Assembly: GCF_044324785.1 (NCBI RefSeq)
Contig: NZ_CP172127.1
Origin: Escherichia coli
GTDB lineage: Bacteria; Pseudomonadota; Gammaproteobacteria; Enterobacterales; Enterobacteriaceae
DNA: 64,000 bases
Reading direction: 5' to 3' (one strand)
Shown: in pieces, positions 54,823 to 55,831 of the stretch
Position numbering within the stretch: position 1 is the first letter of the stretch
Layout of the letters: the number at the start of each line of letters is the position of its first letter
The notes under the pieces: generated by a model
Databases searched by the model: none
Told to the model about the DNA's origin: nothing
The model's input: only the letters and a program-made list of their open reading frames with translations
Translations under genes and position numbers: made by a program

Positions 54823-54937
54823 AATCGCTTCGTCTTATCAGCCTACAGACCGCGCCTGACCTGGTGGGTGGATAAGGCGTGTACGTCGCATCCGGTATCG
54901 GAACTGACAGTAGGTGAACGTATTATCTACGTTCTAT

Positions 54938-55261
54938 TTACAGCAGCACCTCCAGCCCGTGTTTTTGCACAATGCTGAGCAGTTTTAATGAAATGCCATT
55001 GGGGCGTTTAGCGCCACTTTCCCATTTTTGTACAGTTGAAACGCTGGTATTGAGATAGTGAGCGAAGACGGGCTGACTCACTTTTAATTTTTCCCGCAGT
55101 GCTTTTATCTCAACAGGTTGTAAGTCTTGCACGCTGGTCAGGCAGGCTTTGTCAAAAGTACGCATCGTTTCAGCAGAAATAGCATCGACGCTGGACAATC
55201 CAGCCGCTGCGCTGTGAATAGCTTCAAATGCAGGACTTTTAAATTTAGTTTTTGCAGTCAT
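54938..55261 (-). CDS. Xre-family HTH antitoxin (HigA-like), 107 aa
   Basis: Cro/C1-type HTH (VSQPVFAHYLNTSVSTVQKWESGAKRP); overlaps the upstream toxin-like ORF by 17 nt. Confidence 0.7.
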   Translation of the reverse strand: MTAKTKFKSPAFEAIHSAAAGLSSVDAISAETMRTFDKACLTSVQDLQPVEIKALREKLKVSQPVFAHYLNTSVSTVQKWESGAKRPNGISLKLLSIVQKHGLEVLL

Positions 55262-55604
55262 AGCAGATCTCTGTCAGTTCTTTAGTGTTAATCATTGCTG
55301 TTAGTTGGGCTTTCGTCAGGAAGGCATAATGCTTTGCAAGTTCACGAAACCCAGCCAGTTCCTGACTATTAATGTTCGACATATCCTGTTTTGCATATAA
55401 AAACGTGTAAAACCAATTGCTTCCCCCTTTCGCCAGAATAATTGCACGCTCACGATTTTGGTGAAGGCGCTTTTTAAAAACGCCACCGCCAAGTGCATCA
55501 GCTTTACCTTGTTCCGTTTCTAAAATGGCCCGGCACAACTCTTCATCTGTTATTGCATGAGACCTGGCTTCCCTTGCAAACCATTTGGTTTTAAACACGC
55601 GCAT
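55245..55604 (-). CDS. RelE/HigB-like type II toxin, 119 aa
   Basis: Small basic protein directly upstream of, and translationally coupled to, an Xre antitoxin (HigBA-type order, toxin first). Confidence 0.6.
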   Translation of the reverse strand: MRVFKTKWFAREARSHAITDEELCRAILETEQGKADALGGGVFKKRLHQNRERAIILAKGGSNWFYTFLYAKQDMSNINSQELAGFRELAKHYAFLTKAQLTAMINTKELTEICYDCKN

Positions 55605-55831
55605 ATCGTTGAGGTCCTGTTATTAAAGTATATCACCAAGTGCAATACTTTATCCCTTGTTCCCAACACAATCGCGAAAATACATATCACCTTGCCCTAT
55701 GATTTTTATTTCTTCGAGCAGCCTCGAACTTTTCCCACGACACCGTAAAAGTTGCAAAAACGTTAAATGCGTCACACATTTCAATGTTAAAGTGGTCGGC
55801 TTTTCCCCTGAAACATGCCACGGGTAACACC

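Follow-up and report, generated by a model that had tools for sequence, protein, structure and literature searches.

A predicted HigBA2/ToxP-type toxin–antitoxin gene pair between yicN and nepI of Escherichia coli, probably ancestral to the species and lost on the lineage leading to K-12

The window analysed here, a stretch of 64,000 nucleotides of Escherichia coli DNA (contig NZ_CP172127.1, assembly GCF_044324785.1), carries two small overlapping genes between yicN and nepI. We consider it highly probable, taking the explanation as a whole, that these genes form a toxin–antitoxin (TA) operon of the HigBA2/ToxP type, and that this operon is an ancestral module which was lost once, towards phylogroups A, B1 and C. 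By homology, the most likely products are a ribosome-dependent mRNA endonuclease and an antitoxin which represses its own operon. The first-pass annotation of this region is thereby amended on two points: the subfamily is HigBA2/ToxP and not classic HigBA, and the difference from K-12 would reflect a deletion in K-12 rather than an insertion here.

The positions of both genes and of the neighbouring elements are listed in table 1. The arrangement described at first reading, i.e. two minus-strand open reading frames (ORFs) with the longer one upstream, was recovered with the same coordinates and the same overlap. These ORFs are not a product of chance, as their exact proteins are both found on at least 1000 public contigs and their dN/dS ratios against other Escherichia lineages are 0.06–0.12, indicative of purifying selection. 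PGAP names them ‘type II toxin-antitoxin system RelE/ParE family toxin’ and ‘helix-turn-helix domain-containing protein’. The AT-richness noticed earlier in the spacer between the toxin gene and nepI was also found (41.4% GC, against 51–52% in the flanks), the value for the whole cassette being 43.4%. At the yicN-side junction, a REP-like element matches the REP-derived Rfam family naRNA4 with 29.8 bits (E = 0.0095), which is under the gathering score. Its arms form an inverted match at 15 of 17 positions; arm 1 is common to the genomes with an empty site, and arm 2, the inverted one, is specific to the cassette. This element may act as a stem–loop at the 3′ end of both convergent transcripts.

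Table 1. Features of the yicN–nepI region in the window (antitoxin domains in residues of the 107-aa protein).
Feature	Position	Strand	Remarks
yicN, flanking gene	ends 54822	+	
REP-like element at yicN-side junction	54866..54942	+	weak Rfam naRNA4 match
Presence/absence segment	54898..55740		about 843 bp; from alignment of occupied and empty sites
Antitoxin gene	54938..55261	-	107-aa ORF, ATG start; XRE-HTH
Antitoxin, N-terminal conserved segment	residues ~5-45		motif SPAFEAIHSAAxGL
Antitoxin, XRE-type helix-turn-helix domain	residues 46-102		C-terminal
Overlap of toxin 3′ end and antitoxin 5′ end	55245..55261	-	17 nt
Toxin gene	55245..55604	-	119-aa ORF, ATG start; PF06296 ‘RelE’ / HigB2-ToxP type
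Possible Shine–Dalgarno AGGA	55615..55618	-	10 nt upstream of toxin ATG; inferred from sequence
Inverted repeat TAAAGTATTGCAC-TTG-GTGATATACTTTA (minus-strand reading)	55624..55652		19 nt upstream of toxin ATG
Extended -10-like element TGATATACT	55627..55635	-	in promoter-proximal palindrome arm; by eye
Extra half-site-like copy GGTGATATGTATTTT	55677..55691	-	54 nt upstream of the operator's promoter-proximal arm
nepI, flanking gene	starts 55832	+	

The upstream ORF had been proposed as a small basic protein of the RelE/HigB kind, a proposal that the HMM search upholds: the protein has a pI of 9.2, and its residues 1–113 align with the full length of the Pfam model PF06296 ‘RelE’ (positions 1–120 of 120; E = 9.8e-42, 142 bits). 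No other Pfam family was matched at E ≤ 10, including PF05015 (the family of Rts1 HigB and V. cholerae HigB-1) and PF09907 (that of K-12 HigB/YgjN), and the searches against NCBIfam models and against the PADLOC models of anti-phage defence were likewise negative. Hence the first reading of the pair as a HigB/HigA-like module stands as far as a toxin-first type II system is concerned, but the type is more precisely that of HigBA2 (PF06296), and neither that of Rts1 HigB nor that of K-12 HigB.

Neither the toxin sequence nor either of two family profiles matched any PDB sequence, even at E ≤ 10, so that the link to V. cholerae HigB2 is made through Pfam, hhalign and fold comparison. HigB2 (our reference sequence was verified as identical to PDB 5JA9_C) is itself a peripheral member of PF06296, with E = 3.3e-8 over model positions 8–96 of 120, and was also placed in this family by others (PMC11980606). 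An AF2 model of the toxin, built with 34 homologues, reached a pLDDT of 92.4. When this predicted model was compared with the PDB by Foldseek, ranks 1–11 were all VcHigB2 chains (probability 1.00, approx. 20% identity), with TM-scores of 0.55–0.62 normalized by target length and 0.44–0.57 by query length. HigB of S. pneumoniae, HigB of E. coli, RelE, YafQ and ParE all ranked below HigB2; the E. coli HigB structures 6KML and 5IFG came low, with a TM-score of approximately 0.35, and RelE chains had E-values of at least 0.2.

In the register given by hhalign (probability 17%, i.e. of low confidence), residues K44, R46, R53, Y70 and K72 of the toxin correspond to K49, R51, R64, Y82 and K84 of HigB2. 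With this low-confidence alignment backed by the fold match, we predict that these five residues form the active site. No substitution of K44, R46, R53 or K72 was found among 29 aligned pairs, and position 70 is either Y or F. In HigB2, alanine at R51, R64, Y82 or K84 lowers activity 170- to 3000-fold (PMC5416850), and K49 is listed with these four as an active-site residue (PMC10098735). Purifying selection is evident from a toxin dN/dS of 0.065–0.12 against two other Escherichia lineages, at dS values of 0.16–0.31.

The downstream product does contain a Cro/C1-type helix-turn-helix, as first suggested (Pfam HTH_3, E = 1.2e-7, residues 52–96); the C-terminal part of MqsA_antitoxin was also matched in Pfam (E = 1e-5). 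Among PDB sequences, the top phmmer match was V. cholerae HigA-2 (5JAA/5J9I; E = 8e-10), residues 46–102 being aligned with residues 38–94. Matches to the NCBIfam models for the MqsA family and for NadS (the latter with E = 1.4e-10) scored 41 bits, under curated cut-offs of 61.8 and 60, respectively. Indeed, for TIGR03830 (41.1 bits, cut-off 61.8) the alignment covers profile positions 47–119, which are the HTH half only, and the 107-aa protein contains no CxxC motif. PADLOC returned generic HTH matches only. Residues 1–45 match no domain but show strong conservation, I15 and H16 being invariant; no sequence similarity was detectable between this N-terminus and that of HigA2, in which an intrinsically disordered N-terminal segment neutralises the toxin. 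In an AF2 model of the toxin and antitoxin fused by a linker, considered for its confidence values only, residues 1–45 form two helices with a pLDDT of approximately 90. The antitoxin dN/dS against the same two Escherichia lineages is 0.056–0.079.

The association of the two genes was assessed in the best 80 of 498 related loci found by scanning one genome per GTDB species, a set that ranges over Enterobacterales, Betaproteobacteria and Acetobacteraceae. In all 80, the toxin gene is immediately followed on the same strand by a gene for an antitoxin homologue, nearly always with an overlap or a gap of a few base pairs (offsets between alignment ends from −13 to +8 nt). The toxin-first order put forward at first reading is thus a constant of these loci, and the overlap of 17 nt in the window suggests that both genes share one transcript and are translationally coupled.

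Upstream of the toxin gene lies an inverted repeat with arms of 13 nt that are 85% complementary, which we predict, from its sequence, to be the operator bound by an antitoxin dimer. The related loci share a palindrome with the consensus TA-TAGCAC-N3-GTGCTA-TA, located upstream of the toxin gene at a median distance of 25 nt from its start. In a scan of the 130 nt upstream of the toxin (background 0.006 per 130 nt), its core TAGCAC-N3-GTGCTA, of the GCAC-N3-GTGC type, was found in strict form in 64 of 79 loci and with one base changed in 11 more (75/79). Both arms of the Escherichia palindrome depart from this consensus, with the recognition helix unchanged. The extended -10-like element within the promoter-proximal arm is a candidate operon promoter; a scan of the region for consensus promoters (both hexamers required) and terminators yielded no sites. 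The operator of V. cholerae HigA2 likewise consists of one inverted repeat lying over the -10 element (PMC11006873). The extra half-site-like copy is one unit of a direct repeat, D2 (ATATCACC), that is found in other Escherichia loci too.

Taken together, these features point to a chromosomal type II TA operon of the HigBA2 or ToxP–AntitoxP kind, which could function as follows. One promoter, with its extended -10 embedded in the palindrome, would drive the toxin gene and then the antitoxin gene. The toxin would be a ribosome-dependent mRNA endonuclease of RelE fold, cleaving mRNA in the A-site by means of K44, R46, R53, Y70 and K72 and so halting translation. Neutralisation would be carried out by the conserved N-terminal segment of the antitoxin, the C-terminal XRE domain of the antitoxin dimer being placed on the palindrome to repress the operon. 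Loss of a labile antitoxin would then free the toxin. That the toxin is toxic and cleaves RNA, and that the antitoxin neutralises it and binds DNA, is thus expected by analogy with the characterized relatives; the literature searched yielded no experimental work on the E. coli pair.

Comparison with other E. coli bore out the earlier remark that the pair is absent from the yicN–nepI region of K-12, MG1655 carrying a short version of this spacer. In a set of 5426 complete genomes of E. coli, the cassette was found in 1716, always on the chromosome and in single copy, with 95–99.8% identity. A further 3667, including MG1655, have one junction in common, with 100% identity in nearly all cases. 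When occupied and empty sites were aligned, the latter proved to have 43 nt in place of the presence/absence segment. On the same strand, this scar matches toxin codons 29–35 (ETEQGK) at 17 of 19 positions, both mismatches being synonymous, a score reached by 7 of 5000 shuffled sequences; from this similarity, the match is probably a remnant of the toxin gene. One apparent decaying intermediate, E. coli HS-02 (79% identity, ‘frameshifted’ toxin), was rejected, as its differences consist of runs of C, T and G such as a low-quality assembly produces. In the E. coli phylogeny, phylogroups A, B1 and C form a derived clade. According to a published survey, these three are the only phylogroups that lack the RelE-domain toxin (PMC10790755).

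The order nepI–pair–yicN is not restricted to E. coli. It was found in two other Escherichia species-level genomes, in Citrobacter amalonaticus, in one further Enterobacteriaceae genome and in Klebsiella indica, K. michiganensis, K. grimontii, K. oxytoca and K. pneumoniae. In K. spallanzanii, yicN lies downstream of the pair (the locus starts at the toxin gene, which leaves the nepI side outside), and in Salmonella the pair adjoins nepI, while a different set of genes occupies its other flank. In every host, the module has a GC content of 44–48%, including Klebsiella, where nepI is at 61–62%. Accordingly, AT-richness, which had been taken to fit an acquired cassette, is no sign of a recent arrival in E. 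coli. From the synteny, the near-identical scar, the remnant, the phylogroup pattern and the uniform GC content across hosts, we favour a module that was ancestral in E. coli and was lost in a single event on the common stem of phylogroups A, B1 and C, to which K-12 belongs, leaving the 43 nt scar. The deeper history is less certain. In Klebsiella the module is 10–15 GC points under its host, without the amelioration expected of an old resident, which weakens the case for a module ancestral to the family but not for one ancestral to E. coli. In addition, a neighbour-joining tree of toxin plus antitoxin does not cleanly unite the nepI-linked copies, and contains a tight, nearly identical subclade spanning several Enterobacterales families, which is suggestive of a PF06296 toxin–antitoxin family that is also mobile.

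This mobility bears on the initial idea of a pair inserted into a plain yicN–nepI spacer, by which the lineage in the window would have recently acquired a mobile cassette. We regard this scenario as very unlikely, even though the cassette is poorer in GC than its flanks, is missing from K-12 and two-thirds of E. coli, and belongs to a family which can move, as indicated by the above subclade and by relatives on plasmids (183 records in a tblastn search, 19 of them from Coxiella). Indeed, the nepI-adjacent position is already filled in other Escherichia, Klebsiella, Citrobacter and Salmonella, and copies from cryptic clades have diverged as vertical descent predicts (dS of 0.16–0.31 and dN/dS of approximately 0.1). 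No sign of an integrase, an IS, a tRNA or a target-site duplication was seen at the junctions. Nor is the empty site clean: its 43 extra bases with a toxin-like remnant are near-identical in 3667 genomes, and the absence is limited to phylogroups A, B1 and C. Low GC in all hosts also argues against this scenario, and the claim of an insertion is therefore not retained.

Another reading concerns function: the module could have decayed or been domesticated, with a toxin that is no longer toxic and an antitoxin that persists as an ordinary regulator of transcription and may act on the promoter of the divergent nepI. Among eight sampled carriers, three have ATA in place of the toxin ATG, one of which is also frameshifted with its antitoxin intact, and since such alleles lack the start codon or the frame, the module may be less active in certain lineages. 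The degenerate Escherichia operator and the long-term linkage to nepI across genera could be understood in the same way. However, both ORFs of the window allele are intact with all predicted catalytic residues kept, toxin and antitoxin have similarly low dN/dS ratios, and the operator lies at least approximately 90 nt beyond the nepI upstream region kept by empty-site strains, which makes an overlap with the nepI promoter unlikely; a decayed or domesticated module thus appears decidedly improbable. As for the target, the generic PGAP name and a superfamily that includes both activities (PMC11980606) would accommodate a ParE-like gyrase poison, or a toxin with some other target than RNA. We judge this to be extremely improbable, because the sole Pfam match is to PF06296, whose tested members HigB2 and ToxP inhibit translation, because ParE structures fall far under HigB2 in the fold search (E > 0.3), and because the toxin retains the active-site tyrosine and basic residues of HigB2. 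A more speculative variant, which we hold to be unlikely, would make the pair a long-domesticated resident whose divergent linkage to nepI, a purine-nucleoside efflux gene, predates the separation of Escherichia, Salmonella, Citrobacter and Klebsiella. In that event, low GC would have been kept throughout and the Escherichia operator re-tuned. The antitoxin, or activation of the toxin, might then feed into nepI or purine physiology. As a separate point, the full-length PF06296 toxin is perhaps neutralised in another manner than HigB2.

On the preferred reading of an ancestral HigBA2/ToxP-type operon with a single loss, the ‘plain’ spacer of K-12 would be a deletion scar, the pair would mark E. 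coli outside phylogroups A, B1 and C, and K-12 would offer a natural null background for its study. The genes are already annotated by PGAP, the Pfam family is established, a report on the distribution among phylogroups exists, and two relatives have been characterized in detail. The pair thus matters little for discovery, and its uses are modest. The E. coli toxin nevertheless represents the core full-length architecture of PF06296, for which no solved structure exists.

Among known systems, RelBE of E. coli K-12 shares with this pair the RelE-type fold and a basic active site, ribosome-dependent cleavage of mRNA in the A-site being the expected activity. It differs by its antitoxin-first order and its ribbon-helix-helix antitoxin, and RelE is classified in another Pfam family, PF05016 (PMC11980606). 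E. coli MqsRA is toxin-first, as here, and the C-terminal HTH of the antitoxin resembles that of MqsA, as it does that of NadS/YiaG-type HTH proteins. However, MqsA has an N-terminal zinc-finger domain which is absent here, and the toxin is not MqsR.

HigBA2 of V. cholerae (VCA0468/VCA0469; PDB 5JA8, 5JAA, 8A0X) resembles this pair in several respects. Both toxins belong to PF06296, HigB2 is the closest solved fold, and the two systems have in common the toxin-first order, five active-site positions (by alignment), a homologous C-terminal XRE domain in the antitoxin and a single inverted repeat over the -10 element, here a predicted one. HigB2 is known to cause growth arrest that is rescued by its antitoxin, and to cleave mRNA in a ribosome-dependent manner (PMC5416850). 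There are also differences. The toxins have approximately 20% identity, undetectable by PDB sequence search, and HigB2 has a long basic β2–β3 loop that the present toxin does not have. Conversely, the N-terminal strand (residues 2–6) and the C-terminal helix and strand (residues 98–115) found here are absent in HigB2, and the details of neutralisation may therefore differ. The operators also diverge (TGTACGC-N5-GCGTACA for HigA2, the TAGCAC-N3-GTGCTA type here), which fits the replacement of all four base-contacting residues, R68, E71, N72 and R77 of HigA2 being S75, Q78, K79 and A84 in the present antitoxin.

The ToxP/AntitoxP system of the Coxiella burnetii plasmid QpH1 (CBUA0028/CBUA0027), the nearest relative that has been studied experimentally, has the same toxin-first overlapping organization. 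ToxP is 31% identical to the toxin over the full length, including the N-terminal strand and the C-terminal extension, and AntitoxP is 55% identical to the antitoxin over residues 5–106, including the N-terminal segment. ToxP is toxic, also in E. coli, and blocks translation, and AntitoxP binds both ToxP and its own promoter (PMC10098735). These systems also differ: the Lys/Arg-rich β2–β3 loop, of the GKGKRGG type, is longer in ToxP and short in the toxin of the window, and the Coxiella pair is plasmid-borne and serves plasmid maintenance, whereas the E. coli pair is chromosomal and, most probably, vertically inherited.

The toxin gene of the cassette (the presence/absence segment between yicN and nepI that holds the toxin–antitoxin (TA) pair) is annotated by RefSeq/PGAP as 117 aa from a GTG in all sampled carriers (L090-L095 and L001 among the loci compared), including those that retain an intact ATG upstream. 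We favour the 119-aa form, as the N-terminus of the family alignment reads MRVFKT and the AF2 model predicts a strand at residues 2-6. The start codon itself varies among carriers. It is ATG in the window, and ATA replaces it in three of the eight sampled carriers, namely O157:H7 SS TX 313-1 (L001), the blood isolate 5283 (L090) and MRY15-131 (L094). Translation of an ATA-start gene would need the GTG two codons downstream, which lies far from the AGGA (a possible Shine-Dalgarno motif); these lineages may thus produce less toxin.

In MRY15-131, the toxin gene is moreover frameshifted (a pseudogene according to PGAP) and the antitoxin is intact, a case of toxin-first decay. The cassette of E. 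coli HS-02 (L085, NZ_CP172818.1) displays just 79% identity, the differences being extended C, T or G tracts, which look like a low-quality part of the assembly rather than true divergence. Separately, a deletion in the E. coli soil strain SC455 (L004) takes out the entire spacer between yicN and nepI together with the 5' end of nepI, which PGAP annotates as a partial pseudogene, and adeQ is annotated as frameshifted in O157:H7 SS TX 313-1 (L001 1162-2495).

Elsewhere, a subclade of near-identical toxin–antitoxin pairs is common to Erwinia, Edwardsiella, Enterobacter, Tenebrionibacter, Serratia and Pectobacterium (L008-L011, L014, L016, L021, L025-L030 and others). The settings of these pairs are unrelated, and the subclade seems to represent a branch of this TA family that has been mobile recently. 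In seven copies (L012, L015, L018, L023, L038, L047 and L087), no sign of amelioration of the TA module was found, since its GC content stays at 44-48% versus 57-62% for the adjoining nepI; a reading of these copies as old residents leaves this absence unaccounted for. Cassette copies were also retrieved on two approximately 1-kb contigs of a 'Collinsella sp.' MAG, one (L006) matching the E. coli cassette at 97-100% identity, the other (L046) near-identical to that of K. pneumoniae; both are probably contaminating contigs in the Collinsella bin.

At the yicN-side junction, one arm of a REP-like element is common to empty-site genomes (E. coli without the cassette), and the inverted second arm is cassette-specific.

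Features at the yicN-side junction and upstream end of the toxin gene
Feature	Coordinates	Remark
REP-like element	54866-54942	Lies across the junction of the presence/absence segment on the yicN side; matches Rfam naRNA4 weakly (E 0.0095, under the gathering score)
Toxin start codon	55602-55604	
Predicted operator	55624-55652	
Extra half-site-like copy	55677-55691	Further to the predicted operator

The predicted Escherichia operator (in the window, L005 and L007) reads TTGCAC...GTGATA and departs on both arms from the family consensus TAGCAC-N3-GTGCTA, even though the recognition helix of the antitoxin is unaltered.
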